From assembly GCA_010405405.1 (NCBI GenBank), contig MU004234.1, forward strand, positions 2,453,697 to 2,517,696: 64,000 nt of DNA. The letters are read 5' to 3'. This document shows, piece after piece, positions 456 through 27,180 of the stretch (the stretch's first letter is position 1; each line of letters starts with the position of its first letter). The DNA comes from Microthyrium microscopicum. Taxonomy: Eukaryota. The position numbers and the translations under genes were made by a program. The notes beneath the pieces are model-generated. The model had not been told where the DNA came from. It saw only the letters and a list, made by a program, of their open reading frames with translations, and ran no database searches.

Positions 456-2741
456 CTACTTCTCTACCAAGCCTACAGCTCCATAATCATCTTCACTAAC
501 GCCTACTCTAGCTCGATTCCGTCCATCTGCTTTCAAAAGTTCCCGTACACTCCTATCCGGCATTCCGTTCGCTGCCTTATCCCAAAAATCAATTGTTGCC
601 GATGCAACGAGCTGGGCAACCGAGCACCACGTATTGCCCAAGATACTCCATTTCGTGCCAGCCAAGAATGTAGCCAGACAAATGATCACCATCAACATAT
701 GGAAAACCATCACAGCTGCCACTGCTATAAAGCCGGCATGTCGTACAGGCGCGTTGGAGGTCATAAAGTACGCCTGCTGCACCTTTTCGGATTCATCGAG
801 CAACGCGAGCTTGTCATAGTAGTTTATACTAGCCAGCGAAGATATCAGTGACTGTAGCGCAAATGCCAAGCTTCCGCCAGTGTTCAGAATCTCTTGAAAG
901 AGACGCAGGTGCATTGGGTCGGGACAGATGATATTTGGAGAATTCACTTCTAGGCACCAGCTCTGCCAGAGGGAGGCAGGGATATTTCCCTCCATGTCAA
1001 GAGCATAGTGGTGGTAGCTGCCAAGGTTGGCGAGCCCGCGAATCCATGGATCGTTGATGGGGAGCTCGTCGCTTTGCGCCAGCCAGGAGGCACGGATGGG
1101 TGTGAGGTCAAGTAGACCGCGTGCCATGTTGCTCTTGTCACGTTCTTGGCCGTAGAGTGCGCGAATATCGTCGAAACGGTATGTCTGGTTCGTGCTATTG
1201 TATTTGGGACTTGGCTCTGTGCGGTTTTTTGGGCTTGACATGCGGACGGGCAAGTTGGCGGTGGTGAAGGCTGCGTAGCATAGCGATATGCTGAGGGTTA
1301 GATTTACATCTTTGTACTCGAGATCCTGCCATATGCCGCGCTCATAACTGCTCACCGACCCTAGATTGTCCCCTTCTGGCAATTGGTCATCACCCAGCTC
1401 AACATTAAGCACGATGTATGCCGTTCCAAGGTGTTGGGACCCATTCACGCCGGTTATATAGTCTGTGAGGTTCGTGAGGGAAGGAAACTCGCTGATTAAC
1501 CCACCCGGGCCTGTGTTATCGAATTCGGGAAGCTGGCATAATGCGATGCGATGATCTTTCGTAACCGAGCCGAGGAAAGGGACGTAGCAGGTGAAAGGTG
1601 AGGCCTCGTTGTCGTGTTCGTCAGGAATGGCAGTATTGTTCAAGCGAGGAGTCAGTCGAGTAGCGCCAATGAATCCAGACACCACGGTACTTGTGAACAA
1701 CCCGCCATACCGCGAAGGAGCTAGGTATAACATCGGTATTTGGCATGTCACTCGGTTGTCCAGCACCATAGTCTTGCCAACATCCTCATTAAGAGTTTCT
1801 CATGCAGAAGCTGACTGGAAAGGTAGAAAGGCACGAAGTGTCAGTCCAGTATCGTCCACACCATCGGCCACTTGAGGAGCTTCTCTATACTCTGCAAATG
1901 CAGGGTATCCTTGAGGCTTGAGTGACCACGTCGACGGCCGAGTGGCCGAATCATCTGTCACATCGCCTAGGCCGTACGAAATATTTTGTGTAAAAGATCT
2001 CGCCGGAACCTGTACTAGTCCAAGATCACTGACAAGTACGATGGTGATTACTTGCAGGAAACCAAAGACAAACAAGAAAGCAATCATGAGAAGAGGTAAA
2101 GCAGACTTGCATTTGCGGACCATCCTCCACACCCATCCTTGCTCTTGCCAGAGACCTAAGATTGCGCCGGTCCCCAGCACACTTGCTCGTATCAAGGCTA
2201 CGGTAGCTGCATTCTCCAGCTCAACTTCGAAGCGTTCAAGCGTCAAGGCGGCAAGCATAGCACTACAAGTGCCGATTTGAAACCCAATTGCAAGCTTCAA
2301 GCCTTCAGAGATGATAGTGATTGCTTGTGTCATCCAGTCTCGGACCACTATGCCGCGCCATGTGGTATCTGTTGCGTTGGAGAACCATAGAAATGAGAGC
2401 AGGCCGAGACACAGTAGTATGACTATGTCGCCCAATACAAGCACGGCGATAGCGGTCTTGCCTAATTTCTGTGCCCAAGTGACACGCTTGAAGCCCGTTG
2501 ACTGAGACTTGTTTTGCGCTTTTCTGTCTCCAGTTGTCGCTTGCTCGGTCCTCGCAAGAAAGTGTGACCTTTCGTCCTCTATTGGTAATTCATCTGGGTT
2601 GGCCTTGTTCCGTTCTTCGCCGGATCTCAAAGATTGATGTATATTATCGTTCTTGTTGCTGTATTGGGGCTCGGAGGTTGGAAACGATGGCAAAGCCTCG
2701 CTCACGGCACTTATCCGGGATATTTCTGGACCTGTCTCCAT
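456..2741 (-). pseudogene. Uncharacterised fungal multi-TM glycoprotein gene interrupted by a single in-frame TGA at 1800-1802
   Basis: ORFs 1800..2741 and 456..1769 are in the same frame, separated by TGA plus 10 sense codons (...LRAFLPFQSASA*ETLNEDVGKTMVLDNRVTCQ...). There are N-terminal TM helices, a large luminal region with N-x-S/T sites and a C-terminal TM followed by 'LGNTWCSVAQL'. No splice signals are evident around the stop. Confidence 0.7.
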
Positions 2742-3255
2742 TTCTTCTGGACCTTAGCAAGTACAAGATAACATGCTGGTAAAAGCTTTTGACCCAAGCG
2801 AACCTTTCTGTATTTCTAGGTGCAATGTTCGCGTCTTTACACTGCGCACTTTTGTTGGTCCAACGCGCTGCACATTGTTTGAAGGATTCCGCCATGAGTC
2901 ACCAGAGCCAGCCACAATCCATTTCAACGCCATCAAACGTACCATCGTACCATCGTACATTCGTGTCTTTGATCAACTCTGATTCTGTTCTCAAGCGCCG
3001 CTGCTCCGTTCAAAGAGCTTTCGCAGTGCTCTCAGAGGTTGTGACTTGTATAACGCATCTCATGTAACGAGTCAGTAAGGCCGCCGAATGTCCAAGAAAA
3101 ATGCAAATGCCGTGAAATTAGCCATTAAAAACAATAAATCCGGGGTATCATAATACAAGACATTAAATCGTAACCCGCCAAACCACGCAATGCAATGAAA
3201 ATCCAAAACATCCCAGCTCTTCCATCCCATGCCTACAATCATGCTTTATCAATAC

Positions 3256-4525
3256 TCAACAACCCGACCAAATCGCATTAACAAACATCCCATAACTATC
3301 CGCATTCAACAACCGCTCTGCGCTTCCCAGAGCCACATCATTCGCATACCCATAGGCCAAATCCTGCGTGCCCGGCTTGAAGATGATATCCGCATGCGTA
3401 TATTCGTGTACGGCTGTGGTCGTTTGGTCTTGCGAGTGGCATGCTTTTTCGAGGGGTTTGAGTGCGGTGAAGAAGGATGGACAGTAGGTTATGCTGTCGA
3501 GAGCGGACAGAGTGAAGGCTAGGGTTGAGTCGTTACAGTACTGCGAGTATCAGCGAGCGAAACGAAAGACAGAGAGTGATAGAGCTTACGTTATCGGGAT
3601 CAGTACAGTGGACGGTCGTCTTGGCTTTATCGGTAGCGGCGGCACATTCGGTAGCTACGGCTATGTAGCGATCATGGACGGTTTTGCGCGCGGCTGCGTC
3701 TTGGGTGCCGAAGTGTTCCTCGAATCTGCTACTGTCAGCTTCTGAAGAGCTCCACGCTGGGATATGGCGAGTTACTTCTTCGCGTCCCCGCTGAGCGCTT
3801 GCGCGGCAGCGAGCGTTGCTAGCCATGCACAGCTATCGTGCGCGGCTTTGACGGCTTTCAAGTGGTCGCCTGTGCAATCTTGCGCCACAGCACTCGCTGG
3901 AGTGCGAACGACCGCAGCAAAGCTATGGGCGGCGCGTTTACCGTCGACTTTGATGGCGAGTTTGTTGCTGTTGAAGGCGACGGAGCCGGAGATGTCGTTG
4001 TTGTCGCCGGTAGCGATGGGGATGTGACCTAGAGACAGAACGCTGAACTCTCCGCCGCTGGTCAGGTCGTGGAGTGAGGCCAACTCGACGTTGACGGTGA
4101 TGTTTGAGCCAGCAGCGAGTGATGTAAATGCGGAGTCGGGCAGGTTGTGGTATTTAATACTTTTTCTTATGCCGGAGAAGGGGACTCGGGCGTTATCTGG
4201 GCGTTGTGAGCAATACTATTTAGGATGAGTAGAGGGTAGTGGAGGTAGACGTACTTTGGCCGTGGAGAAGGAGCTTTTCAACTGGCGCGGCGTCTAGGAT
4301 TGTGCCTTCTCGTAGGAGGCGGAGGCTTGTGTCTCCATTATTGGTTATCACCGCTTGAACCTGGGTGTGGTCGAGAGAGGTGATTTGAATTGAGAGAGGA
4401 CTAATTTTTTGAGTAGCTTGTTCTGCTCTTGCTCTTGAAGAACTGGCTTCATCTCTTGGGGGAATAGCTGATGATATGGCCAGGGTGGCGTAGGACAAGA
4501 GATATACCGGAGTTGATAGTCGCAT
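3256..4525 (-). CDS. Secreted M35 metalloprotease (deuterolysin / neutral protease II family), 4 exons
   Basis: Signal peptide, prodomain (ITNNGDTSLRLL...FNSNKLAIKVDG) and a mature domain with HEYTH zinc motif, GTQDLAYG and NADSYGMF. Introns at 4197-4254, about 3725-3775 and about 3540-3588 have GT..AG ends and keep the frame. Stop TGA at 3256-3258. Confidence 0.93.
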
Positions 4526-6556
4526 TGCTAGTGAATGACTTTAATCCAGCCAGCCCAGAATGAAAATGCTAGAAAACTACACGCAAAGGAGAATAATAAG
4601 AGTCAAATCGAGTTGCCACCATATCTTATATCGGCATGGTCGACTCAGTAGGAAGTGATAGGATCTAACGAAAAGGAATTATCCAATGAGCAAGATCCCA
4701 CTCCCGTTCCAAGATCCCAATTTGCAGTAAGACTTGCTTAGCGATAAGATGGGTCAAGCCAATGTAGTAGGTGCACAACGATCGGCACGGAAGGAGTGTT
4801 TTGACAGCCTTGTGTCCAGACGGCCCGCTGACCACGATTATGGAACTAGGAGGGTGTTTCTAGAGGAGAGGCAGGTAATGACGGGAGACGCGCTGTAGTC
4901 CTTGTAGAATGTTACAGGGACTGTGGTCGCAAGCTGTGATTTTTTCAGGAAGCTGTTAGACGGGAAGGTAAGCCGGCGGGTACTGGTATAATCCTGGAGC
5001 AAGTCACATAGGCACAATCGGATTTGGGAGCAGAGGCCTGAAGGATGACGAGAGAGCTGACACCTGTATGGGAAGAAGCACAGGCGCGTCAATGGTTTTT
5101 AGAACAAGAGCTCAATGGTCCACAGTGATATGTCCTACTCCTATGGGATAGGGCATTGGTGGATTCCAGGATGGAAGAGAACTATGAGTTCAATCTTGCC
5201 TCCGAGCGCGATGTAGAACTAGAAATCAACAAGCGGAATGATACAGCTGCCTGGTAAAGTAACAGAAACCTGGGGGAAAAGCGCTTGTCACATTGATCGC
5301 CGAGTGTCGATGAACAAACCCATAGCCCAGGAATAACTTTGGATGGAATATGATGATCCGAACGGACTAAGATCAAGCATTAACTGTACTCATAAACTTA
5401 TTTCGTGGCAGAGAGAGCGTAGACATCTGTCTGAAATTGGGAGGTTTCTTACCGAACCACGATAGGGCTCTCGCATCTGTCAAAAGGCGAACCGAGAATG
5501 TACATTTGGCTCAGCTCCAAGATCTAGAGAGGTCTCTCCGCATCAAAGCCTGCTTCAGAAAAGGCCATGTCCTTGCTCTTTCTGACCAACGTTGTCCAAA
5601 GGACGGAAACTCAGATAGCTTGGCAGCTTCCTGATGGCGACCTAGAACGTCATAGACCATTGAATTGGCAGCTGAGCATGGAGAAGCGAGAGAGCGAGAA
5701 GCAGCCCTGCCATAGTTTGCGAAATCGGTAAAGAAACAGAAGCAGTCAAGTTCGTGTAAAGTTTACGCTTGTGGACAGGCCTGTTGAAAGCAATATAAAA
5801 AGAGCATGGATGAATTGCTTCATATAGGCGATGCAGCTGTCACATTAGTAGTCTAGTACAAATGAACTGCTGGGAGTGGTGTGGAGATGGCGATCAGGCC
5901 ACTTGATGCCAGCTCCCAATGGTCTGGGATGATAAAGGGGAAGGAGGATAACGGCTTCAAGACAGGTTATTATCTCAACGGCTTCATACGTCAATCAGAG
6001 TGTTGACAAAGTTGTTGACCGTTTTTGAGACCTGATAGAGTGCTCAGTCCCAATAATCGGGTGGTTGGAGCCAACAAGCCTAGGGTGCTGGCGCTTCAGG
6101 TCGTAGGGCAGAGCCTTGACCCGATTGTAGGCCTTCTTACGGAGTACTAGAATATGATATGCAGATGGAGGACAGCCGATTTGACAAAAGTTGATGAAGA
6201 TGCTTGAATGTTGAGGGCTCGTTGTGATCAAGACTGTGCAAGTAGTAGAGTACCGTACCTGTGTAGCGGGAATAAAGACAGCAAATAGTCCTAAAGCGAA
6301 AAGAATGTGGGTAAATCAAGGCAAATATCGCCGAAACCAACACCAAAACGCGAAACGGAGCCCTGTCTTGATCTGTTTCCAACATGCCCCAATTGATATC
6401 CGATGGTCTTCTGTTCTTTTGCCGCCTGTTTTCCCTCTCAGGCTTTTTGCAATAATGTCTAGACCATCGTCTACTTTGTTGCCAAGCTGCCACTCATCAC
6501 CTCCTGAGTTTGTACGGATCTGATCCGAGAAGTGCAAGGGACGCGTGTCTGTCAAC

Positions 6557-7461
6557 ATGGGTCTTTTTGATACCTTTCGCAATCTAGTAGGCAAGTAACT
6601 CCATTGCTATTATTTCTTGTTAGATCCATTCCTGCGACGTGCTGTGCTGGATGGCCGGCTTGCTGTCAGCTCAATCCAGCCAACATGAAGTTTTTTTTGG
6701 CGATGCACCTCCTGGTCTACAGCAAATCGAGCAACTACATTCTGAATTGAATCTGCAGATTTTGTCAGCGTATCGTAAGCTAATAGTTTACAGCCGGTGA
6801 CGGAAATCGTGGTCGATATGCCAGCCTTGGCAAATCATCGTGGAGTGGACGAGTGTCTCGCCAGCGATGCATCACTCTACTACTTCTGTTTACCATGATA
6901 TTGACCACCATCGGTATTTTGGCATATACGCCATCCGGACCAAAATCTTCCATACCATCCAACGAGGAGCCAATTGAGGACCACCATCTGTCTAGCAAAA
7001 GTCTCATTTTGACCCTGAACCAAACCGATGCTACTGTTCCTTCCTTTCGTGTAACCATCACGAACTACCACTTTACTACCAAGGCCTCCTTGCTAATGTG
7101 GGATTCACCTTTCGATGATCAAGGCGTTGCTCTAGGTCTCTTTACCATTATGGAACGAGGGTCTGGGAAACAAATCCCAACCCAAGGCCTTCATATCTCG
7201 CGGTTGATAGCCCCGAAGAAGGCAGATTTTATAGAACTTCTTCCGCGCCATGCTGTAACCAAAGATCTACCATTAGGCAAGCCTGGAGTCAAGTTGGCCA
7301 AGGGAAAGAGCTATGATATCAAGGCGTCAGGAAAATGGAAGGGCGTCTGGTATGCCGACGAAAAGTATACTGGCGAACAGAGGTTGAAAATGATGGGCGG
7401 GCCCACTGGACTCATTAATTGGAAGTACGAAACCAATACCCTCAAGGTGGATGTAAAATGA
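6557..7461 (+). CDS. Stand-alone M35-prodomain-like protein with N-terminal signal-anchor (about 233 aa, 2 exons, GC-AG intron 6591-6793)
   Basis: ATG in caacATGg context at 6557, donor AG|GCAAGT, branch GCTAAT and acceptor TACAG at 6793 join in phase 1 to ORF 6853..7461. A hydrophobic segment (CITLLLLFTMILTTIGILAY) is followed by a domain that aligns by eye with the neighbouring deuterolysin prodomain. No HExxH motif. Confidence 0.75.
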
Positions 7462-9374: not shown

Positions 9375-10030
9375 ATGACAGACAAAGAAACATCGTAAGC
9401 TTTAGAAGAGTCTTTGTGGACTGCATTATGATTGACCAATCTAAGTAGCCCGCCAGCTCAGACTGGCGAGAGGAAGCAGAGTGTCCAAGTACTGGCAGCC
9501 CCAGACAATCGCTCACAGGCTACAAAACAGGCAGACTACCCGATCGAGTGCTGGGTTAACCTCATGCACGGTACCAAATTGACGTTCGATCAATGCTCCA
9601 GAGCTTTGAAGTGGCACTTGGAGGACTGGGAAATCCCAAATGTGAAGCCTTCCCACGACGAGATCCAGGCTGTTCGAGAATAACCCGCTTTTCCAAGGAG
9701 CCTAATGAACAAAATTACAGGGCGGGTATGGAGAAGAAGCGTCGTGGAATTCCATTGCAAGGTGCTTATCATGCCAACGGGCCATATCCTCTCTCCTATC
9801 CTTACGTTCAAGGCAAAGACCCGTTACCATCAATTGCCGTAGACCCGTTCTCTGTTGTCGAAATGGCCCTTCCTAACTCTGGGAGCCAGAAAGAGGCAAA
9901 CGTTGGAGCATCTGCCCACGCAGGGCTTCGCACATCCAAGCGAAAAAGAGCACAAGAGGTCACTGCCGATGAGGGTGACGAGATTGCGACAATCGCAACA
10001 AAGCGCTCCAAGTCAAGACAGATGCACTAG
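9375..10030 (+). pseudogene. Hypothetical gene with an apparent frameshift near 9675-9683
   Basis: ATG at 9375, intron GTAAGC...TTGAC...TAG joins to ORF 9432..9683. Plausible protein then continues in another frame (ORF 9593..10030, ending KRKRAQEVTADEGDEIATIATKRSK). Confidence 0.35.
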
Positions 10031-10441
10031 AAGATGTGAATGGCGAAAACGACTTGCCGACTTTCTATCAAAGTCAAAACTACGGCAACCGCTCTGGTAA
10101 TTCACACGTTGTTATCGGACGAGCTGAGGGCTTCTTTCTCTCACAGCTTTTTGTTTCAATTTTGGCGACACTGGACCGTCATTGACGACAACTGAGTTGA
10201 AAGCGATGACAGGAGCAGAAATTGAGAGTTGGAAATGAACGGGGATCTTCAGTACAGGCCAGAAAGTCGTCGAATTGCTCGATCATTGCAGCAGTCTTCT
10301 TTAGTATCTTAATATTATCTTTGATAATCATGCTAGTACCAAAAATCGTGCACCATTATTCCTTGAAGTCTATATTTTTTGTCTAGTGCTTCCTCAATCC
10401 AAGCTACCACCTATTGCTTCTATACATCTACAAGGTGGATA

Positions 10442-12012
10442 TCATTTTCCATCGCAAAACTGTATCACTGCCCACTCTCCATGCCATGCCCACCGTCTCT
10501 GTGGCCCTGGACCGCCCTCCTGAGTCCCCCTCAATTGCTCATCTTTACCTTCTGGCAGTCCACACACCGCATCTGCCTTGCAGGTCCGTAGCGCGAGCAC
10601 CCGAAGCCCAGAACCTGGACCAAGAGGTCCAATTGCTTCAGAGAAAGGTTTGGTCGGGGCCCATTCAGCCTATGATCTTGTTAGAAATCAATTGATCACC
10701 AAGGAGGGACAACATACATCCGCGATGAGTTTACGATAGTTCAGATCACCCTTGAAAATCACTAGCTCGCTCTGCTTCAAGTCTTCATACAAGTCTGGTG
10801 CTGTTGCGGGTAGTCGCCAGAAACTTCCTCCGTGGGTCCAGAAGCTGTGAGTTTTGATGACGAGCTTTCCTTCTTGTTGGAGCGTGGTCCAATTTTGATG
10901 GAGAAATGATAGGCTATCGAGCTCTGCGTTTGACTGTCCATTCTGTTTTGATTGGAAGAAGTCTTCTCCGTTCTTGAGTGCGTCGAGGAGATCAGCGATA
11001 TCTTTGGTGACGACGTCTGAGACAAACCAAGGGAAGTTCTTGGGATGGAGTACGACATTGGTTGCAAGGCCTGTGGACAGCAAGTAGCCAGCCAATACAA
11101 GGTCGACGAAGAGTTCGAAGCCTGCGTTGTCAAGCACAAAGTCTACTCGACGCTGAGACTTTCCAGTCTTTAGAGCCTCATTCAAGACTGCAAATGCTTT
11201 TGAAAGATCGTTCACCAATATCTTTTTTTCTGACGCTTTTCGTACTTTAGAGCCTTGCAGCTTCTGTATATCTTCCTCGGTTACATTCGTATGGAGTGAT
11301 AGATCTGTTTTGTTCCCCCATAGACATATTTCAGCCATTTCGATGAACAGGATTTCTTGTGCTTGTTCCAGTTGTTGAGGTGTTTCGACACCTTGGATCG
11401 TGTGACTGGATTGTAGGCTCGAGATAACAGTCTTGTATTGAGCGGCTAATTCGAGGACAGCTGGGCGCGAAGCTCTGAATCCAGAAATTTTACTGCGGGC
11501 AAACACATCATAGTTCTTCCAGTGCTTGGATGTGCTGAAGAGATTTTGTATGCGGCGAAAAAAGTAACAACAGGCGAATAGCCAGGCTCCGTCAAGCCAT
11601 GTCGTTGCACCCCGTTGTGCTAATTCTGTGTTGTATGCTGGAATGTCTCCCGTACCGTCGTCTTCCAAGGGAGTTAGTGGGAGATCTTGCTGTACTTCGT
11701 GCTTCAATTGAGCTATCTGATCGATAATAGCTTGACCCTCGCTTTTGGCGTCGCCCTCTGGTAGCCCCGAAAGAGTAGTCTGGATATCTTCGCTAATTTG
11801 GCCCTATCTACTTCATCAGTGACAAGTCAATGAGCAGATTAAAGACCATATGGGATTTCGTACAATTTGCACCGGCCAATTTTCTGTGGTAAACGGATAT
11901 CCAAAGGAGTTTTTATCCCCACTTTGCCATTGAGCTAGACAAACTTAAAGTCAGCTTCTGGAACGTGAACCTTTGGTACTGAAAACTCACGAGTGGTAGT
12001 GTCGAACTCCAT
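10442..12012 (-). CDS. DUF89 / ARMT1-like damage-control metal-dependent phosphatase, 4 exons
   Basis: Motifs LWGNKTDLS, VLDNAGFELFVDL, PWFVSDV, FKGDLNYRKL, RTCKAD and the C-terminus WAWHGEWAVIQFCDGK. Canonical introns; ATG at 12012, stop at 10442. Confidence 0.92.
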
Positions 12013-12569
12013 TTCTATATGTTCAAGCAATTTGCAAGCCTATTGATCCAACATTAGAGGAGTGATGCTTCTCCATGCCTGTGAGGTGTTGGAGAGTTCC
12101 GAGATCGCAATGAAAATAATTTGAATGGCCAATGCAGTTATCCACAAAATACAAATCTTACAGTAGCGTCCGGATTGTCGTCGAACGGCGGTGAGATGGC
12201 TTTTCGAGAGTTTCGGAACATTTTTAAGGCACTAGCAAAAAAATCGATCATCCAGGTATTTGCTATGACACTGAGTACTAGAAACAATGTCTTATCATTT
12301 TTGAAAATATGTCAAGCACATCGAGTTGATTAAGTTCTTAAAGGTTGAATAACAATCAAGTCGCTTACCGAACATGCGGTTGTCGTGAGCATTGCTAGAA
12401 AATCCGGCCGCCAGGTGAAGTCGTCTCACTTACAACGGCTAGCATAATATACAGAGCATAAACAGAAAATGAGGAATTCAGAGCAACTTTATGACTATTG
12501 TGAAGAACACCCTATCAAAGAAGTCTCTTTCTAAATGTTACTCCACAATCGCTTGTATCTCTTATGATT

Positions 12570-13398
12570 TCAAGTCAATGTGAGAGTGCCACTCTTCTGC
12601 GCTGGCATTGGAGTCCCTTTGAAAGCCGCCTCAATAAACTTGACTCCACGATCTACCCATGGTTTCTGCACATAATCAAGATGAGGCGAGAAACACTTTC
12701 CAGCGCGATCGCATGTACTATCTCCCTTGGAACAGTTTTCCAAAAGTCGATTATCAAGTTCATCTGGCAGCTTTCCGATTCCGCTCGAGCTCACCATCAT
12801 CGGGTCGCCATACAACACGACAGCAAGAACTTTAGGAATCAACTCCTTGGGTAATTTGGCTCCTGCGGCATGGATTACTGCAGCCCCAAGAGAGTAACCG
12901 ATCAGTGCAAACTTTTGATTTGGGCATGCGGCAGACTGCTTAGTGAGGCGGTTGATCACATCAATTCGACCAGTAGTTGTGTCGGCAACAGCATTCGATG
13001 ATGCAGGATACTTCGTAAGTTAGTATCAGAACTTGCTTGGAGGCGAGAAAGCACCTACCTGAACAGGATAGCCTCGTGTATTTGGCATTATCGCTGTTAA
13101 ATTGGCCATGATGGGGTCGCCAACTATTGATCCGAACTTGCCATTGGTCTTGGAGTTTGGCTCACTTGTTCCTCTCGCTATGTCTCTTCTTAGTGATATT
13201 TCCCACAAATTGCTAGTTTGACCTACCAATGATGACTTCGAAATCAGAACAGCCCTCAGGCACATCTTTTGGATTGACTGGAACAGCTGGACCCATCGTC
13301 CATCCTGTGCCTCCAACACCCTTTGGCATTGGCTTGCATCCTTGCGAGTTGACTGTAGCGATCAGGGCAACTAAAAGAAGAATCTGGTGGTGCCACAT
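12570..13398 (-). CDS. Secreted cutinase (CE5), 3 exons
   Basis: Signal peptide, ARGTSEP, CPNQKFALIGYSLG (nucleophile Ser), YGDP, CSKGDSTC (Asp) and PHLDY (His). Two GTAGGT..AG introns restore the frame. Confidence 0.92.
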
Positions 13399-14336
13399 AA
13401 TGTCAAGCCTAGAATGAAGTTATCAGTGACTCGCGTGGTTGACAAAGTTAAAGAAAAAAACACAACATCATAGGGTGTCCTTTTCAGTAGCACCTTAGAC
13501 AGTGCATTTCAGTAATAGTACCGAGAGATAAAGAATCGGTTGGAGCCGAGATTATACTAATCTTTGTAAGTACCCTTTCAGTTTAGATTAAACCATGGCC
13601 ATAAATGGTAGATGTTGAGAGCTTGTAGGGCAGGTCAGTCCAATAATATTGCACGCGCCTACATCCTCTATACTGATCAAGCGCTGATCTGGCTGAGAGC
13701 CGCGTCAGTATCAAGACATAAATCAATAATTGGTAGACGATCTTATATCTACCTAGACAAATCTTTGGTGCAGCATATTATGCTGGTTCTTCCTGTATTG
13801 TTATCTGTAGCAGATATCAGAGGCGATGGGAACGCGGCTTGCAGTTTGTCAAATGCTACAATCTACTCTCTGCGAATAGCGTGCTCCAGACTTTTGGAGT
13901 TATAATCGTGTGAGAAGATGAGGGTTTTCTCTACATATTCTTCTAGAACGATTATTTGAGACGTTAGACCCGTTGTGCGCCTCTGAAGAAGGGAGGAAGT
14001 AAAATTGGCAAGGTCATCAAGATTGGCGAGTAATGCTTGAAGTTTTAGGTCGCAGCTAATGGGTAATAGGTCCAAGTAGACTAGTAGTAGCCTCATACTC
14101 CTCTTTAAAAGTAAAAATAGAAATAATTCAGGGGGCGAGTCTCTTTAGGGGGATTGATCTACAGATATCTTTTGTTTCATTGGCTGCCTAGTGGCGTGGC
14201 TTCTCATCATACGAGCTTATTTCTTGTACCTGCGCCTCAAAACAACAAGTCATCCGTGACATCCTACAAATTCTGACATCGTGGATTTCTTCCCTCACAG
14301 ATATCGCCGTCCTCTATTTCCAAACAAGCTTCCAAA

Positions 14337-15808
14337 ATGCGGTCGGCTAGGTTCCTCTCTGTCGTTCTTGTTGTCAGCAGTACGAGTGTGAGTGCTCTGG
14401 ACCTCGATCCAAAGAACGCTGGTAAGTTGGATTACGCTAGAACAGAGTAATATTCGACGTAACCAAGAGCTAAATCTCAAATTGCAGATTCAATCAAAAG
14501 TGCTGCCAAAGCTGTTGCCAAGACTGTTGTCTCACTTTACAATGGCAACAAATCTGTCGAGATTCCAGGCATCTTTTCGACCCCTGGATTTTACTGGTGG
14601 CAAGCAGCACCTGTCTGGGACGCTCTAGTCGACTATTCTTTCTTGACGGGAGACACGACGTACAATGATATCGTTGGCAAGGCTCTGCAATTTCAAGTTG
14701 GTCCAAACAACGATTATATGCCACCAAATCAAACCAAAAGCGAAGTAAGTTTTGCTCACTAAAATAAATTCAACTCTTATGGAATGTACGGCTGATTCGA
14801 TTTCGCAAGGGAAACGACGATCAGTCATTCTGGGCTTTGGCTGCCATGACTGCCGCAGAGCGCAACTTTCCCGCTCCCAATACCAGTATTCCGACCTGGA
14901 GCACTCTTGCCACCAATGTCTTCAACACCCAAGCCGCCCGATGGGATGACAAGACCTGTGGTGGTGGTGTTCGGTGGCAGATCTTCTCTTTCAACAACGG
15001 ATACAACTACAAGAATTCCCAGTCCAATGGTAATCTCTTTGAACTCAGTGCTCGTCTAGCTGCATTTACCAAGAATGCTACCTACTCCGACTGGGCTGAG
15101 AAGACCTATAGTTGGCTCGAGCAAGTCGGTTTTGTCAACAACGGCGCGGTCTACGATGGAGCAGACTTGACAACAAACTGCACCTCAGTCAGCCACTTGC
15201 AGTGGTCCAACAATGCTGGAGCTCTGATTTATGGAAGCGCAATTATGTACAACTTGACAAGTGATGCGAAGTGGCGCAACCGTACTTCAACGCTTCTGAA
15301 TGCTACCCTCACCACCTTCTTCAAGGACGGCATCATGGAAGAGGTCGCCTGCGAGAACATTGGAACTTGCGCAAGCGATCAAACCTTCTTCAAAGGCATT
15401 ACTGCCATCCATCTTGCTCGCACCGCAGTCGTCGCTCCTTTCACAGCACAGTCAATTATGCCACTACTCCAGAGCTCTGCGACTGGCGCGGCTGTGAATG
15501 CATGCACTGCTCCAGATGGTAGCTGTACGTTGATATGGACTGCTAGTGCCAACAACGCCTCGACAAGCGGGGTGACATCCTTGGGAACTGATTTCTCTGC
15601 ACTGGAGGTCATTCAAGCCAACTTGGTGGGCAGTGCGAAGAGCATCGTGACACAAAATGGATCGACCGCAGTAGGAGGAAATTCTTCCTCGTCTGGAAGT
15701 GCTAGTGGATCAACGGCGAAGGGTTCAGGCGTCAATCTGGCGATTCCGGGCTTGCTGAGTGTGGCTCAGATCTTTGGTCTGATCCTTCTGGGACACGTTG
15801 TTCTATAG
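14337..15808 (+). CDS. GH76 alpha-1,6-mannanase/transglycosidase (Dfg5/Dcw1 family), probably GPI-anchored, 3 exons
   Basis: Signal peptide, YWWQ, spliced EGNDDQSFW catalytic motif, CGGGVRWQIFSFNNGYNYKNS, Ser/Gly-rich linker and hydrophobic C-terminus. Confidence 0.94.
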
Positions 15809-16200
15809 TCCTCTTATGGCATTCCCATTCTTTGCATAGCGACGGTTAACGGGAGATATAATGTCTACTAGACAATCAATGAGCATACACAACTGAACAT
15901 TTTTGTCCAGAACAGACCAAGCTCATGAAAGAAGAGCTGTTTATTTCAATGAAAAATATCTGTCAGAGACATGTCTGGCGCTTCGCATGAAGTCAAGGAT
16001 AAGAGGAAAGAAAAGAATCACGGTTGTACGGGAATAATGAACAGCTTCATGCTCTACTCGGCGATCGACTACATCACCATGAGGCATTGCCGATTATAAG
16101 CGGGGTAGCTCACCATTGTGATATGGTGATAGATTTCATGATTTGATATTCTAATCCTACTGTTTAAAGCTTATTGTTGTTTGACAAAATATATTTCACC

Positions 16201-17160
16201 ATGACAGGGCCCTACTTAGCGAAACCATGTGGTGACTGCTGCTTAGGCGGACATTTGCACGAAGGGGAGCCACGAGGAAGCACCGAGAAGATACACGATA
16301 TCAACACATATGTTGCAAAGCCCAGCGATGAAAAGTCAAATGGAAATATAGTCCTGTTCTTCACTGATGTCTACGGCATATTCCACAACAACAATCTTCT
16401 CATCATGGATACATTCGCAGACGCTGGTTATCTGTGTTTAGCTCTTGATTTCTTTCAAGGGGTAGGTTTCCCCTCTCGTTCTTCCTTGAGAGAACACCAT
16501 TGTTGATATATGGTACTAGGATAACTTGATGAACTATCGCGACGAAAACAGGAAGGATCTGCCAGGATTTGATTTCAAGGCTTGGGCAACGAAGAATATG
16601 GAATGGGCAATGTCAGCGACGCCGAAGTGGATTGAGGCTGCGAAGGAGAAGTATGGCAAGGAGGAAACCAAGTATGCTTGTGTAGGCTACTGCTTTGGAG
16701 CACCGTTTGTGTGTCAGGAGCTCGCAAAAGATACCGTCAGCGCTGGAGCGTTCGCACATCCAGCGTTCTTAACAGAGAAGCATTTCTCCGACTTGAAACG
16801 TTAGTTCAAAAGATTTGTCTGGAGATGATGTGCTGATTATACTTCTCAGATCCTCTCTTGCTGTCTTGCGCAGAAGATGACTGGACTTTTGGTGACGACC
16901 AGCGCCATCAGGCGGAAGCGATCATGAAGAAAGACAAGAAGAGATATATGGTCCAGCTTTTCTCTGGAGTCAAACATGGCTTTGCTTTGCGTTGCAATCT
17001 TGATGATCCATACGAAAGTAAGAACAAAGCATACACTTGAGGTTAATTTTCTGACATCCATGCGACAGAATTTGTGAAGGAACAGAGTCTTTCCGGCATG
17101 CTTCAATATTTTGATTTTTGGCTTTCAGGGTCAGCAGACAAATTCATAAAGGTCAACTAA
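16201..17160 (+). CDS. Dienelactone hydrolase family alpha/beta hydrolase, 4 exons
   Basis: CGDCCLGGHLHEGEPRG N-terminus, GYCFG nucleophile, AHP, AEDD and HGFALR. Canonical introns; stop at 17158-17160. Confidence 0.92.
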
Positions 17161-17542
17161 TACAAATTTAACTCCAAGCATGAAGGGGCATAAGTGTATG
17201 TATTAGGAACGATAGATAACTAACTGTGACCGAATGGTTTTCAATATCGCATGTTTGGCCATCAAAATACATGCGCTATTTACTCTCATCCACCAAACCG
17301 TTTGCTGACCACGGCAAATCGAGAGAATTTCTGAACATTCATGGCATTTGGCAATCGTTTGCGATTAACCTACTCGACATGACTGGAAGCAGTTGTTCTT
17401 GCATTGAAGCTGATGGCAGACATCCTGTTTGGAGCCAATGACTCGGAATAGCTCGATCGTTTTGTCACTACACGACCCCGGAAAATACATGCTGTAGTAC
17501 AAGCTAATAAACGCAGCCAAGCGATGCAGCTGGTGCTGCCAA

Positions 17543-18217
17543 CTACTTTGGTGCAAATGCCCAAGCTATTTCACCCTGCCCCAAAAACCACAACTCCTCT
17601 CCAATGTTGAATCTCGCTTGAGTCTCATATTTTGTAAAGAAATGATCTGATAAGTACAATCTTTCCCTTTCCAGGTGTGATTTCAACAAGGGTATTCTGT
17701 GATCTAAATATTCTTGGTCGCTGAGATAGCTATGTTCTTTCCGTATGTATCCAGCGGAGTGCGCATAATCAAGTCCATTGGATCCCACAAATGCCAAATC
17801 GAAATCTAGAAAGTATTTCATGTCCTCAACTTCATCCGCGAGAATGTCTGGCCCGACGCCATGGCTCAGTGTGGCATCTATCAAGTTGACCACCCTTTCA
17901 GTTAACTTTTCGTCTATGTCTGGTACTTTATTGGCGAGTTGTCTGAAAGCGTCCACACTTTCCGCCTCGTTAGTCGTCGCTTGGGGATTGTAAACCCAAT
18001 CGTGAAGATAAATGGCTAGTTCGACAGCTGTGGGGTTCGATATGGCAGACTTGTGATCATCCAACGAGGCAAGCATGGAATCTACGTGTTTGAGAGTATG
18101 ATAATGTTGTTGTGGCTCGGTATGGTGTTGCAAAAATGCTATACTATAAAATTGGCTGAGATTATGTGTTGCGCCGAGTGACTGGAGGAGTGCAGAGAAT
18201 CTGGTGCAGATCTCCAT
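17543..18217 (-). CDS. HD-superfamily predicted metal-dependent hydrolase (COG4339-like), intronless
   Basis: Motifs HYHTLKH, LAIYLHDWVYNP, NEAES, FLDFDLA, IRKEHSY and ARFNI. Likely ATG at 18217. Confidence 0.8.
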   Translation of the reverse strand: MEICTRFSALLQSLGATHNLSQFYSIAFLQHHTEPQQHYHTLKHVDSMLASLDDHKSAISNPTAVELAIYLHDWVYNPQATTNEAESVDAFRQLANKVPDIDEKLTERVVNLIDATLSHGVGPDILADEVEDMKYFLDFDLAFVGSNGLDYAHSAGYIRKEHSYLSDQEYLDHRIPLLKSHLERERLYLSDHFFTKYETQARFNIGEELWFLGQGEIAWAFAPK

Positions 18218-18528
18218 GATTGAGTAAAAGGATGTAAAGTAGGTGCTATGTCTAGAAACCGCTTGAGTAGATGGGTACATCGAGTCGTTGGTCAAAGGTA
18301 CTTATCGAGGACATTAATAGCTCTAGAGTTGCAAGTTGCTCAGCCTCGCCTTTTCAGCCTCGCGCTAGGCAAATTCAGGGGTAATCAAGCTCGAGCCATC
18401 AATAAGCCGCAGCTTCCGACTTGTATGTTTTCTTTTGCCAAACAACTATCTGCAACTCTTCTGAGTGATTCTTCAACATACAAAGAAACATCGTCTCCTG
18501 AAGTTGCAGGAATCCGGAGACACAAGTA

Positions 18529-20081
18529 ATGGCGAAGTCACTCCACGACCTTCCAGCACTCCGGCCGCTAGGTAAGATATATCCTCTACAGGTGGTCTGA
18601 GAAACAAGGCTTAAGAAGCATCCATTGAACAGACACAGCGCGTAGACTCTACTCTAAATCATATAGGCAAGCTGGAGCAGTACTCAGCCTCGAGGCATAT
18701 ACTGAACTTTTACAACAACGTCGGTGTTTCGGCAACCTATGAGAATTTACTGCAGGATATATCTCAGGATTCTCTCAGATCCCATATCTATTCAGCATGT
18801 CATGAAGCCATAAGAACACATCCGGCATTGTCAGCGGTGCCTATTGCTCCACCCAACAAGTCAAGCGAGTTATATTTCGCCCGCCTTGACAAGATCGAGC
18901 TTGACAACTGTGTACTATTTCAAGAAAGAAAGGCCCCACGGCCGCAATATGGCCAGGATGAAGAGGATGTAATTATGGACCCTGAGCTCGATGACTTGAT
19001 AGCAACTCAGCACAACGTTTCTTGGAGACTTCAAATTGAGGCAGGGGATCTTTCTCCGGTGTGGCGCCTGGTTGTCTTGTTCAACCCAACAACGTCCACA
19101 GATTCCTCCTTCACAGCCTGCTTCATATTTCACCATTCTATAGGCGATGGTACATCTGGAGTCGCCTTTCATCGAACCTTGTTGCGAGGCCTCCGTTCAA
19201 GCATTGAGCTACCAGTAAAGGACATCAAGAGCGTCGTTGAAACACCCAAGGACGCCCGGCTGCACCCATGCGTGGAAGATTCTCTGTCACTCAGTCTATC
19301 ATTGGGATACATTGCTGGACCCTTAATTGACAATACGCTCCCTTGGATTTTTTCTACAAAGTCAGCACTTTGGGCCGGAGGAAATATCGTTGACGAGCCC
19401 AAAAGCCAGTTCCGTTCTATGACCTTCTCTGCCGCAGCGTCCAAGAAATTGGTCGCTGCTTGCAAAAAGAATCGTACGACAGTGTCTGCTTTGTTACAAG
19501 CAGCGCTTGCAGATGTTCTTTTCAAACTACTTCCTGAGCAATTTCAAAGCCTGAAATCAAGCTGTCCTGTCTCCCTGCGACCTTTGCTGCGTGAAAAAGG
19601 AATAGACAACGGCACCTTCGGCGTATACATTGGCGCTGCGGATGTTGAGTTTCAACGATCCGAACTAGCCGTACCACCTGAAGGATTATCGCCAGCATTT
19701 GCGTTAATTCGGGTCTCTCAACGTGTGCGAGAAGAGCTAGTCAGATTTGTCGCGAAAGGAGCCAAGAACCTCAGTATCGGGTTGCTGAAATATGTTTCGG
19801 ACCTCAACAGCTTTTTCACTAGCAAGCTTGGAACCGCCCGTGATACAAGTTTCGAGGTTTCCAATCTTGGTGTCGTAAAGGAAGATCCGGAGCACATGTC
19901 GGCGATGGTCTTTAGTCAAAGTGCCAACGTGACGGGAGCAGCATTTTGCGTCTCTTCCGTAACTAGTGGAGACGGCCGCTTAGTACTTGGATTCAGTTGG
20001 CAAGAAGGTGTTGTTGAAGAAGTTTTAGTGAACGATGTCATTAGGGAGTTGCCAAAGATCTTTGCGCACTTTTGTGATTGA
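18529..20081 (+). CDS. Alcohol acetyltransferase family (CoA-dependent acyltransferase), 2 exons
   Basis: Spliced start LRPLG|KLEQYSASRH, HHSIGDG (HxxxD) catalytic motif, SFEVSNLG and MVFSQS. Confidence 0.9.
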
Positions 20082-20187
20082 ATGGATACATGCATAAAAT
20101 AACTCTGCTTCAGAGGTAGCAGAGATCCATCAACACCCACATAATTGTGGTTGACCAAAATGGGTGTTCAATGCTACTCATAAGGGT

Positions 20188-20197
20188 GTCCTAGGGA
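20188..20197 (+). repeat. Left terminal inverted repeat GTCCTAGGGA
   Basis: Exact reverse complement of TCCCTAGGAC at 31180-31189; lies at the left edge of the AT-rich block. Confidence 0.7.
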
Positions 20198-21915
20198 CTG
20201 GGACTCTGCTCTTTCTTAGTAGAATTTAGCTTAGTAAAGCATAATGAGGCGTTATAACAATATAGTGGTAGATTATAGTTGCGTAGTTAAAAAATATAAT
20301 ATATAAGTATAATATATATATATATAAGTAAAATATAAAGTATAACTCTAACTTTTAAATACGTAAAACTTAATATTAAAACGTAATATTATTTTTAACT
20401 ATATAGAAACTTAAAATACTATAAAGCTATAAAGATTAACTATATACTATATAATAAGTTATATAACTTATAAATTTATAGTATAACTTAATAGTAAAAG
20501 CTACTAGCTAGTAGTAATTTATTATATATAGAATAAATCTTAGTACTAGCGTCTATACTTTTTAGTACTTCTTAACTTTAAATCCTAAACTCTTAATATA
20601 ACTTTTACTCTAGGCTAATATATAATAATTTCTTAGAGTTCTTAGAGTTTAGTATTATTTTATATTATTTTACGTGCTTTTTTTATATAAGCCTTTTTAT
20701 ACTCCTAAATTATTTTCTTACGTTACTTTATTACCTTATATAATTTTACTTTATAGAAAAATTATATTACTATAGCTAAAATTTAAATTAACTTACTACT
20801 TATTAATAAAGCTACTACTATTAAAGCGTAGGCAAAAGCTACTACTACTAAAAAGAAGGTAAAAGCTACTATTACTACTTATATTACTAAACCCTTTATA
20901 AGTAAATATTATACTAGGATATTATATTATATAAAGTTAATTATAGTTAAAGAAGCACTTAATTATATAGTTTTTCCCTATATCTTAATCTACTTATTAT
21001 TATATACTTTTATATATCTTATATTTATTCCTTTATACTCTAAAGTTATATATTTAAAGAAATTAAAATAATACCTACCTTATTTATTTAAAATACTATA
21101 CTAATAGTAATATTAGTATAGTATATTAATTTAAACCTAATGCTCTTAATTTAACTTGCCTCTAATAATTAAGAGTAAAGGAATACTACTAATATATATA
21201 AAGACTATCTTTAAAAAATAACTTGCTATATTTATTAACTATAGCTATTTAAATAGTTACGTAGATCCTTTTATTATATCTTAGCTAGCTAGCTAAACTT
21301 TTAATGCTAATAATTTAGTATAAGTTTTTAGTATAGAGCTTATTAATCTTTAAGAGTAAGCTTACTATCTTATGTTCTTTAATTTCTTTTAGTTTATATA
21401 TATATATATTTATTTTAATTATTTATTTTAATAGTTTATAGCTATTATATATATATTAATACCTATATTAATATCTATTAACTATTTAATTAACTATTTA
21501 TATCTAAAGAATATTTAGACTTTTAGTTTATAATAAATAAAGTTTAAAATTAAATTAAGTATTAGAAGAAAGTTACTTATAAGAATATACGTATAAGTTT
21601 ATTTCTTCTTATATTATTAATTATTTATTTTTTTACTCTTAACTATTTAGACTACTTCTTATTATATTAGACTTAGCTATTATAATAACTCTTATTTAAT
21701 TTTATAATAATATACTATATTCTCTTTTCTTACTTATATCTTTACTACTTATTACTACTAAGTACTATACTAGACTTTAATACTATAACTTTTACCTAAT
21801 TTTACTACTATATATTATACCCTTTATTCCTTATATAATTCCTACCTAAGCTTATTATAATATACTATACCCTATTCTTATTCTTATAACTAATTCTACT
21901 TCTTCCTATTATATA

Positions 21916-22260
21916 CTATAAACTAATCTCTCTTTTACTATAATTCTTACTTCTTTTTACTATATACTATAAACTAATCTCCCTCTTACTATAATTCCTA
22001 CTTTTCTTTATTATATACTATAAACTAACCTTCCTCTTATTATAATTCCTACTTCTTCTTACTATATACTATAAACTAACTTTCTTCTTATTATAATTCC
22101 TACTTCTTTCTACTATATATTATAAATTACTTTTCTTTTTACTACTCTTTCTACTTTTCTCTACTATATACTATAAACTAACTACTTTCTTACTACTTTT
22201 TTTACTTCTCTCTACTATACTTTATAAACTAATTACTCTTTTACTACTCTTTCTATTCTA
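21916..22260. repeat. 51-bp tandem minisatellite A (about 7 degenerate copies)
   Basis: CTATAAACTAA recurs at 21916, 21967, 22018 and 22069, with further degenerate units after. Confidence 0.85.
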
Positions 22261-22470
22261 CTCTATATTTTACTTCTCTCTTTCTATTCTTCTATATTCT
22301 TTATTACTCCTTATTAGGCTTTACCTTAAGATATTTTTCTTAAGCATAGCTTTACTAGCTTTTATACTACTTTACTAGAGCACGTTTTAATTTTACTTTA
22401 CTTTGCTAGGGTATACTTTACTAGGCCTTACTTTACTAGCTTTTTTTTACTTATACTTCTTTAGCTTTAG

Positions 22471-22653
22471 TTTACTTAGTTTAATTTAATTTACTTAGTT
22501 TAATTACTTAGATAATTTACTTAGTTTAATTACTTAGATACTTTACTTAGTTTAATTTAATTTACTTAGTTTAATTTACTTAGTTTAATTACTTAGTTTA
22601 ATTACTTAGATAATTTACTTAGTTAATTTGCTTAGTTTAATTTGCTTAGTTAA
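22471..22653. repeat. Short tandem array of core TT(A/G)CTTAG (about 13 copies, 13-19 bp spacing), followed by an (ACTAG)n-like run near 22722-22770
   Basis: Read directly from the sequence. Confidence 0.8.
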
Positions 22654-25600
22654 CTTTATTAATTTATTCTTTTAGTCTCTCTAGATTACTAGCTCTTTAT
22701 AAATAATATAACTTTACTTTTACTAGACTAGATTAGACTAGACTAAACTAGACTAGACTAAATATAGACTACTTAATTTACTTTAATTAATTTACTATAA
22801 CTAAACTATTAACTAAATAATACTAACTTAAGTATAGAGCTACTATTAAAAACTTTATAAAGTAACTAATTTAAGCCTTTAACGCTATAATAATAATAAT
22901 AAATAGGAATTTATATTATAAGCTAACTTTTCTGTTAAAAGTTTTATTACTATATTCTTATATTTTAAAAATATTCTTAACGTTAAAATAACCTTAGAGA
23001 ATAAAGATTATAAGTATAGCGCTTATTTTCTTAAAGGTATAAATTATTAAACTATAATATCTTATTTAACTATTCTAAATCTAGCTTAGCTAGTTTTAAT
23101 TATATAATTTAAAAGTATACTAACTATAAAATAAAAATCTAGATAAACCTTAGCTTAATCTATAGCTAATATTTATAAGAGGTTTATATAGTTAGTAATA
23201 CTTCTACTTATTAAAAGTATAAACTTTCTTAAGATAATATCCTTTTATAGTATTATATACTACTAGCTTCTAAAAATTTTGCTAATATTATAATCTTAGA
23301 CTTTGCTAAGTTAATTAGCTTACTTTTTAAGAAAAAGTCTAAGAAGAAGAAGAAGGCGTCTATAGTACTTAAGAATAGCTTAAAGAAGATTTAAACTTAG
23401 CTTCTTTCTTCTTATAATAAGCCTTTTGTTAATAAGAAGAATAAATAATTTCCTCTTACTAATAACCTAAGTAGTTAGCTAAATAGTGCTCTATTATCTA
23501 ATAATAATTAGTATTTTTATTTATATTTCTTATTTTATATTTTCTATAGTCTATAGTTTATAGTTTAGTTTATAGTAATTAGTTCGTAGTATATATTTTC
23601 TTACTTAATAGAATACTTTTATTATAATTATAAAAAGCGTTATATTTTCTTTTACTTACTACTTATATCTTTTCTTCTCTTTTTTTTTAGGTATTACTTA
23701 TTAGCTACCTTAATTTATATTATCTAAGAGTGTTAATATAGTAGATTATCTTTTAAATACTTTTCTATTATTCTTTACTATAGCTAAGTCTTTTTGCTTA
23801 CCTTAATACTTAATTATACTAAGTAGTTTAGTAAGTAAGAGTTATATATACTACTACTATAGCTTATCTTCTACCTTATATAACTCTAGTTATTATTTAT
23901 AAATATTTATTAATAGTAAGTAAGAAAGATTACCTTTAATAGTAGCTCTATATAACGTAATTTATATTATAGTTTTAAATATAGCTAATACTTTAGGCGT
24001 AGTTACTTTAAAGGTATCTTTAGAACCTTAGGTATAAAGTTTCCCTAAGGTAAATATAACTATAAGTTTTAGATCTTTTTTATACTAACTTATATAAGTA
24101 AGTTAAATTTATAGCTTCTTAGTAAATATTTCTATATCTTATAACTAATAGCTATAGCTACTAAGAATATTAGTAGTATTTTAGAGTTACTTACTAACTT
24201 TTATAAGAGAATAATCTTAAATAAATATATAAATATTACTTCTTTAAATTTCTAGTAACTTAAATTAAGGTATACTAGAAGGTTTACCTAAGGCATAATA
24301 GAGAAGAGTTATATTTTAGGTAGTATTATTTATAGAAGCTATATTAGAAGAAGAATAATATTTATTTTTACCTTATAGATAAGATATAGTTAGAATAAGG
24401 TTTATAGTAAGTTTAGAAGCTAAGAGTATTAGAAGTTATAAGATTAGATCTTACGCGCTAAGACTTATATAGAAAATTATATATATATTTTTTAAATTAT
24501 CCTACTATTTAATAGATAACTTAATAGTAATAATTTAAAAGTAAAAGAAATACCTTTATTAGAACTATTAATATTAAGAGGCTCCTTAGAGCCTTCTAAG
24601 ACTTCTTTACCTTCTTTACCTTTACTAAATTATAATAGTAATATACTAAGTCTAAGTAACCTAAGTTATATTAATCTTATAACTTTATTTAAAAGTATAT
24701 TATTACTACTTTTAATAAGTAAGTCTTTTTAAGTATATATTAATATTAATATATCTATATAAGCTGCTTATAATAGTAGCTAGAGAGGTACTTACCTAAT
24801 TAGAGGAGGTAATAAATAATATCCTTAAACTATAATAGTTACTAGAAGTTTAGTTAGTAGTATATTATAAAGCTTATAAATTTAAGATAGAAGTTAAGTT
24901 AAAAGGTTATATTAATAACGTAAAAATTATATTAACTAAGATTAAAGAAAATTCCTAAAATAAGTAGATATTATTAAGTAAGGAATAGTAAAAAGCGTTA
25001 TAGTAATATAAAATTAAAAACTATAACTTAGTAGATCTATTTTCTAACTAGCTTATAATTTTTATAGCATAATTCTTATTATTAAAATATTATAGTAGTT
25101 ACTATTTAATTATATAATTAGGTAGAGTTTTAATATTAACTTTAACTACTAGTAGAATTTCGTAAAGCTTAAAAATTTCTCTAAGTTAGAATATAGTCTA
25201 AGCGCTTAACGTTAAGTATATATTAAATAAGTTAAACTTAAAGCTTTAATTTAATTAGTAATAGAATTAAGCTAGCTATATTAGATTCCTTAGAATCTAA
25301 GATTATTTCTAATAAATATATACTAGTATTTTTAAATATGCTAGTAGTAGGAGTAAAGACTATATAGCTAATCGTATGCTTAAAGTTAGAGTTTTTTAAC
25401 TAAAGCCCCTCTCTAAATTTTAGAATACTTAACCTCTAACCTAATTATTTACTACTATAATATTATCTTTATAGAGCTTATAATATTATACTTTACTTAC
25501 TTTTAATTTCTACTAATTAATATATTATTCGTTTATTTATCTAATTCTAATATTACTAGCCTTGCTATAAGCTTTTAGTCTTCTTAGATTATACTTATAC

Positions 25601-26669: not shown

Positions 26670-27180
26670 CTATACTAATCTCTACCTTCTATTATATAAT
26701 GTCTACTTATAATTACTACGCTATATTAATCTCTACCCTCTCTCTTATAATAATCCCTTATATATTCTATAGCTTACTAATCTCTACCCTCTCTCTTATA
26801 ATAATCCTTTATATATTCTATGGCTTGCTAATCTTTACCCTCTCTCTTATAATAATTCCTTATATATTCTATAGCTTGCTAATCTCTACCCTCTTTCTTA
26901 TAATAATCCCTTATATATTCTATAGCTTATTAATCTCTACCCCCCTCTTATATTAATTCCTACTTTCTACTACAGCTTACTAATCTCTACCCTCTCTCTT
27001 ATAATAATCCTTGCTTTCTACTATAGCTTACTAATCTCTACTCCTCTCTTATATTAATCCCTACTTTCTATTATAGCTTACTAATCTCTACCCCTCTCTT
27101 ATATTAATCCCTACTTTCTACTACGACTTGCTAATCTCTATCCTTTCTTTTACCTTAATCCCTACTTTCTACTATAGCTT
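26670..27180. repeat. 50-51-bp tandem minisatellite B (about 10 copies)
   Basis: TAATCT(C/T)TA recurs at 26676, 26727, 26778, 26829, 26880, 26931, 26981, 27032, 27082 and 27132. Confidence 0.88.

Follow-up and report, generated by a model that had tools for sequence, protein, structure and literature searches.

Known propeptide-like inhibitors and the Microthyrium locus

Papain-like proteases have propeptide-like inhibitors of the I29/CTLA-2 type. The stand-alone I9 inhibitors (yeast PBI2, Pleurotus PoIA1/2, and Trichoderma TrI9) are products of independent propeptide-homologue genes that inhibit in trans and may also chaperone, according to one preprint (bioRxiv 10.64898/2026.05.05.722857). 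In protealysin-emfourin, the gene of an M4 metalloprotease adjoins that of a 1:1 active-site inhibitor, for which self-immunity has been proposed (PMC9505478). M35 deuterolysins are common secreted proteases, several of which act as virulence factors in pathogens that attack plants, insects, or animals (PMC12924839). Here, we describe gene B, a plus-strand gene (protein P0001) that lies head-to-head with a minus-strand M35 gene (protein P0011) in a 64,000-nt stretch of the Microthyrium microscopicum genome (G000:C5:2453697-2517696, hereafter the window; genome of 37.1 Mb in 58 contigs). Both products are listed as hypothetical proteins of this species in the protein database searched. We think it somewhat probable that gene B is a free-standing descendant of an M35 propeptide that acts in trans as an inhibitor, or guard, of M35 deuterolysins.

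Compared with the covalent propeptide of the M35 aspzincin AsaP1 (2x3a/2x3b/2x3c; N-terminal PF02102), B is alike in fold and in profile register and has a similar G-x-x-x-x-R-x-x-P loop, which in B is modeled in the active-site cleft. Unlike that propeptide, B is a separate gene without a catalytic domain, has a predicted N-terminal anchor, does not conserve the AsaP1 loop Lys, and in most members of its family likely has a second start. The logic of an independent propeptide-homologue gene is shared with the I9 inhibitors, but B concerns another protease class and fold, is probably membrane anchored here, and is linked to a protease gene; none of 146 B-family members has an I9 Pfam match at E ≤ 0.1. 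Protealysin-emfourin differs in being a bacterial operon of family M4, whereas B is a propeptide homologue, and no emfourin appeared in our profile or fold searches. Bacillus subtilis Ipi (BsuPI, PF12690; 3isy) is the second-best fold match to B (Z 9.6, rmsd 3.5, 112 aligned residues) and the nearest named Atlas cluster (0.85-0.86, a lead only). Ipi is, however, smaller, bacterial, and only 10% identical; none of the 146 members matches PF12690, and a common fold shows no function.

Stand-alone propeptide-like regulators are known for subtilases, and we found none for M35; the predicted anchor, the gene linkage, and the likely dual start come in addition. Our literature search, in which subscription journals were mostly uncovered and supplements may list some cases, returned no endogenous M35 inhibitor, no prodomain-only M35 family, and no such M35 gene pair, and it returned no paper on a dual-start inhibitor. 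A search within PMC3282736 gave no passage on synteny or propeptides. Under the inhibitor reading, a family of at least 243 clusters that Pfam does not cover would gain a concrete candidate function, and B would be a natural scaffold for inhibiting M35 enzymes. The reading would also provide a case of a metalloprotease propeptide turned independent gene, something described mainly for subtilases so far.

Gene B is homologous to M35 propeptides

A first-pass annotation of the locus, made from the sequence alone, had aligned the gene B product by eye with the prodomain of the neighboring protease. Pairwise, this likeness is at chance level: BLASTP of B against the neighbor's prodomain gave E values of 1.2 and 0.19, and the Smith-Waterman score was matched by 605 of 2,000 shuffles. 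At the profile level the likeness held. An hhalign comparison of the B-family profile with P0011 residues 36-176 gave a Prob of 89.2 and an E value of 2.2e-6 over 138 columns (17% identity), and all six pairs of segments singled out by eye are in register in this alignment. The B profile scored 23.6 bits on the P0011 prodomain and 19.6 bits on that of the Alternaria M35 model P0162; none of 2,000 shuffles reached the score in either case. A search of 177,635 PDB sequences with the 146-sequence family alignment (fragments and some long members excluded) returned only two matches, both to the AsaP1 propeptide (residues 27-124; E 0.0028). With P0001 as a single query, the PDB search gave no match at E ≤ 10.

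The fold pointed to the same protein. The AlphaFold2 (AF2) model of the B domain is a beta-sandwich (pLDDT 90.1), and the expected structural match to an M35 prodomain was found: all four Foldseek matches at E ≤ 1e-3 are AsaP1 (2x3b, E 4.8e-6), and the AsaP1 propeptide (2x3a 23-152) is the top VIA match (Z 12.8, rmsd 2.8, 117 aligned). Only 2 of 48,161 chains, this one and Ipi, reach Z 8, and ApaG-like sandwiches score Z 7.5. An AF2 model of the whole proenzyme from six sequences was unusable (pLDDT 46). Neither an HExxH motif, whose absence the first-pass annotation had noted, nor a Pfam family at E ≤ 1 was found in P0001, and HExxH is absent from all 160 family sequences. By profile and fold, gene B is an M35 propeptide homologue without a catalytic domain. 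The idea that the two genes are adjacent by chance in this genome and only superficially alike is extremely improbable and already largely refuted: the chance-level pairwise alignment and the single PF02102 match among the 146 members (E 0.027) agree with it, and the profile, fold, and independent synteny results contradict it.

Prodomain homology stands, by profile and fold, and one point of the annotation can be refined. B is 48 to 60% identical to its nine nearest relatives, and the neighbor's prodomain is reached only at the profile level, so B belongs to an old, separate family and is not the neighbor's copy. A recent tandem duplication of the neighbor's prodomain was rejected on these identities and on the tree.

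The B family is widespread in ascomycetes

An 11-sequence profile search of 1.84 billion representatives returned at least 243 clusters at E ≤ 1e-3 (142 at 1e-10), of which the best 150 were examined. In nine long members, no Pfam domain was detected at E ≤ 0.01. Among 30 proteins looked up, those assigned to a named species represent Dothideomycetes, Leotiomycetes, Sordariomycetes, and Eurotiomycetes, and the Atlas clusters nearest to B are unnamed and mostly from Ascomycota. Judged from these sequences, the B family is old, widespread in ascomycetes, Pfam-less, and devoid of a catalytic domain. Searches yielded a single B copy in the M. microscopicum genome and no locus in viral contigs. A prokaryote scan with P0001 gave two loci (L013 and L014); L013 was discarded as spurious because its match falls at the end of an unrelated protein of 865 aa.

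In a tree of 145 of the 160 family sequences plus one metagenomic B protein (L015, see below), P0001 falls in a 22-member clade with support of 1.0. The best-conserved loop of the family is Arg-x-x-Pro-Pro, with its Arg present in 95% of members. Other features are strongly conserved and foreign to the neighbor's prodomain, namely W36, W115, W119, and an extra helix at domain residues 128-133. A bacterial M35 gene (L024:715-1917) has a prodomain loop, basic-Arg-x-x-Pro, that looks closer to family B than the loop of the fungal neighbor; this likeness raises the idea that B may have originated from a bacterial-type prodomain.

The head-to-head pair recurs in a second fungus

A metagenome scan gave three loci with B (L015, L016, and L017); an earlier scan had given 76 pattern matches, none of which was confirmed. 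On L015, a 51-kb contig, B lies at 9845-10447 on the plus strand and an M35 gene with HEETH lies on the opposite strand, the two ATGs being 1,018 bp apart. The L015 B protein is 26.5% identical to P0001, sits on a different tree branch, and is nearest to a Paraphoma-cluster protein (44%). Of all window frames of at least 60 aa, none apart from the B and M35 exons has a match in the 20 kb of L015. The other L015 neighbors (JmjC, S26 peptidase, and APH kinase) differ from those of the window. The head-to-head B/M35 pair thus recurs in a second, distant fungus, at one of the three outside loci and with no other common gene. The spacers of the two loci share no conserved DNA block (best blastn E 0.25) and nothing in motif counts. 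For L016 and L017, no M35 match was seen within the only 1,088 and 888 bases that precede B before the contigs end.

Based on the 146 M35 genes counted in 79 genomes in PMC12924839, the chance of a given neighbor being an M35 gene is about 1.5e-4. Table S1 of the same source assigns at least one M35 to each of the seven named B-bearing Dothideomycetes that it includes, which is not significant, as 65 of the 79 species have one. Aureobasidium also has M35, according to PMC4227064. No M35 match was found on plasmids. The third M35 locus of the M. microscopicum genome (G000:C5:477709-478233; L004, L020) is a single 394-aa frame with a degenerate prodomain loop and a second motif so altered that GTxDxxYG is not matched. 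In the Alternaria M35 models P0162 and P0163, part of another M35 catalytic domain precedes the prodomain, which suggests tandem genes merged by annotation.

B is modeled in the active site of the protease

Residues 79-233 of B were modeled with the mature M35 domain (residues 189-370) and a zinc ion in three runs plus controls. The complex scored 0.89 in all three runs, compared with 0.57 for the best control; contacts agreed by at least 97% between runs, and partner pLDDT was at least 82. Of the solved complexes, 51 of 78 attain the pass mark, as do 2 of 108 mismatched pairs. The modeled contact consists of domain residues 65-71, which are paired with strand 283-288 of the protease and reach His321, Glu322, His325, and Asp336. 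The B strand at 62-72, which holds the near-invariant Arg, is thus modeled as pairing with the edge strand of the protease and covering the zinc ligands and the catalytic Glu in the manner of a substrate.

These results also bear on a reading in which B is an old M35-prodomain descendant with some other role (another protease or client), the pairing reflecting a duplication relic or shared regulation (e.g., nitrogen or pH) and not contact. The conserved Trp residues and extra helix that the neighbor's prodomain lacks would suit such a role, as would a fold that is also near Ipi and ApaG-like sandwiches, and an unrelated-protein control reached 0.57. Against this reading, the pair stays together between the window and L015 while all other neighbors differ, and the best-conserved loop of the family, Arg-x-x-Pro-Pro, is the one modeled at the active site. 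We regard it as rather unlikely.

A probable membrane anchor and a predicted second start

P0001 begins with a tail of about 36 aa with a net charge of +5, followed by a hydrophobic helix; hydropathy and charge agree with the short tail and helix recognized in the first-pass annotation. An N-glycosylation sequon at one fixed place occurs in 13 of the 22 members of P0001's clade and in 0 of 124 sequences outside it, consistent with a domain that is luminal or exposed at the surface. For this lineage, we predict a type II membrane protein whose helix stays uncleaved and whose domain lies inside the secretory pathway lumen or on the cell surface. Across the 160 family members, the N terminus includes a hydrophobic helix in 97, starts shortly before the domain in 44, and is of another kind in 10, the remaining 9 lacking the domain start.

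Most anchored members have a Met in the short linker before the domain (78 of 97, compared with about 29 to 38 expected). The codon of the residue preceding it starts with a purine in 66 of 72 cases, 10 Ser/Arg cases being excluded; the corresponding figures are 967 of 1,619 for linkers and 124 of 194 for domain-internal Mets. Ala, Ser, or Thr follows it in 60 of 82 cases, versus 50 of 224. The associated P values (4e-9 and 3e-6) are overstated, as the sequences are related. The pattern suggests that the linker Met is a conserved start codon, predicting an anchor-less cytosolic form in most members. The two in-frame ATGs lie at L015:9845 and 9938, L016:1089 and 1194, and L017:889 and 994. The gene B linker has no internal Met, and P0001 and most of its clade lack the second start.

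A folding role can be weighed here. B could be a trans-acting chaperone or escort in the endoplasmic reticulum or Golgi apparatus that binds M35 transiently for folding, transport, or retention at the surface, with inhibition as a side effect. Fold, linkage, and docking suit a chaperone as they do an inhibitor, propeptides and stand-alone I9 proteins can be chaperones (bioRxiv 10.64898/2026.05.05.722857), and at the loop position discussed below neither of the two linked M35s has a basic residue in its prodomain (n = 2). The linked proteases nevertheless retain their whole prodomain, and the cytosolic form predicted for 78 of 97 anchored members would be unable to fold a luminal protein. With a start-like Met in most family members, a guard role fits better than a folding role, and we consider the chaperone unlikely, more so than a function apart from M35.

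Proposed inhibition in trans and the evidence against it

In the inhibitor reading, B would re-cap an M35 protease that has lost its own propeptide and would thereby shield the cell's own secretory and surface proteins from M35. A shared promoter would match inhibitor to enzyme, and in most other lineages the second start would add a cytosolic copy of B. A wider version, possible but doubtful, is an ascomycete-wide M35 "immunity" family: a freed propeptide sharing its promoter with a deuterolysin and giving two forms from one gene, of which the anchored one would protect the secretory path and the surface of the cell, and the Met2-started cytosolic one would protect the cell interior against its own or rivals' M35s. 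If true, this would be, to our knowledge, the first dedicated endogenous M35 inhibitor family. The protease/trans-inhibitor or chaperone pair proposed in the first-pass annotation has held up in part: homology, the missing catalytic domain, the anchor-type N terminus, the pairing in a second fungus, and the modeled docking all count in its favor.

Several points weigh against inhibition in trans. Because the linked protease retains a full-length prodomain of its own, the need for B is not obvious. The adjacency could be the relic of an old inverted duplication. Since the AsaP1 proenzyme has been solved, the complex may pass because the predictor has learned that structure; a pass shows likeness and not that P0001 binds. 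The control with an unrelated partner still scored 0.57, and zinc was included in the job but not in the calibration. Close cousins also pass, so the modeled pass indicates no particular family member as the binder. The loop Lys of AsaP1, which we take to be the plug of the S1' pocket, corresponds to Ser in P0001; the family has Asn, Ser, Arg, and Asp there in 35, 25, 20, and 5%, followed by the near-invariant Arg. Among the outside loci, L015 alone (one of three) is long enough to display linkage. Finally, this genome has one B copy and three M35 loci, two of them without B within about 10 kb.

At the same loop position, the M35s' own prodomains vary. AsaP1, the bacterial M35 of L024, and an unlinked C8 paralogue have Lys or Arg, whereas the two linked M35s have Ser and Thr (n = 2). 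The non-basic residue in the linked prodomains is a two-case lead.

Gene models and neighboring sequence

The M35 gene carries both signature motifs of the family, given as HExxH and GTxDxxYG in PMC12924839. P0011 has the zinc motif HEYTH, a GTQDLAYG motif, and 8 Cys. It matches PF02102 across the prodomain and mature domain with the spliced frame intact (E 4e-77, 260 bits against a cut-off of 27), deuterolysin 1eb6 with an E value of 1e-41, and the AsaP1 proenzyme over residues 46-363. Exons, motifs, Pfam match, and spliced introns all agree with the intact minus-strand gene, ATG at 4525, of the first-pass annotation. It is an intact M35 deuterolysin gene whose product would, by family assignment, be secreted and proteolytic. 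At the pro/mature junction, P0011 shows KR at 177-178 followed by a lone Arg at 188, with no dibasic pair immediately preceding the mature domain; a dibasic Kex2 site at this junction is common but not universal in M35, according to PMC11985622. The three M35s listed for M. microscopicum in Table S1 of PMC12924839 are all "putative non-effector."

The divergent gene starting at ATG 6557 is likewise intact and spliced, and the roughly 2-kb spacer noted earlier is confirmed (Table 1). The spliced translations of the two genes are identical to the database entries P0011 and P0001. This spacer may serve as a bidirectional promoter. Contigs of X1, a run that the tool guesses to be RNA, lack all four introns (three in the M35 gene and one in gene B), so that in this sample the two genes give spliced transcripts.

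Table 1. Coordinates of the M35 gene, gene B, and the spacer between them, in window positions unless stated otherwise
Feature	Position	Strand	Details and basis
M35 deuterolysin gene (P0011)	4525-4255, 4196-3776, 3725-3590, 3540-3256	minus	4 exons; 1,113 nt = 370 aa + stop
M35 protein parts	P0011 residues: prodomain ~36-176; mature start ~189 (putative); HEYTH 321-325; Asp336		putative signal peptide
Divergent intergenic spacer	4526-6556		2,031 bp between ATGs; no frame >120 aa (open reading frame list)
Gene B exon 1	6557-6590	plus	start codon, 34 nt; P0001 N terminus; X1 joint
Gene B intron	6591-6793	plus	203 nt, GC-AG; skipped in X1 contig; donor and branch sites
Gene B exon 2	6794-7461	plus	total coding 702 nt = 233 aa + stop (P0001)
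Basic N-tail, hydrophobic helix (~residues 38-56), and Pro/Ser-rich linker of gene B	6794-6993	plus	hydropathy, charge, ATG contexts
M35-prodomain-like beta-sandwich of gene B (P0001 79-233)	6994-7461	plus	AF2, Foldseek, VIA; N-glycosylation sequon near domain start
Predicted active-site-binding strand and loop (domain 62-72 = P0001 140-150)	7177-7209	plus	complex model, column composition

The X1 contigs leave 6169-6392 uncovered and by themselves show no starts, strands, or levels. One contig is unspliced over 4526-6168, extending 1.6 kb 5' of the M35 ATG (21 ATGs on that strand), and continues through the gene at 2753-456; a long leader, antisense RNA, or merged contigs are possible. Directly downstream of the M35 gene, 456-2753 (minus strand) holds two long frames, one of 447 aa and one of 317 aa, that belong to a membrane protein; no Pfam family passes the cut-off there. 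Ordinary neighbors (an ARMT1-like phosphatase, a cutinase, GH76, and an alcohol acetyltransferase) occupy 10688-20081. The stretches 20001-31000 and 62001-64000 are AT-rich (GC 0.20-0.24), have no frames of at least 150 aa, and are probably RIP-degraded repeats. At 40626-42038 and 42803-44233 (minus strand) lie tandem look-alike frames of 470 aa, which by eye have membrane helices, an F-box-like stretch, and a Cys-rich tail.

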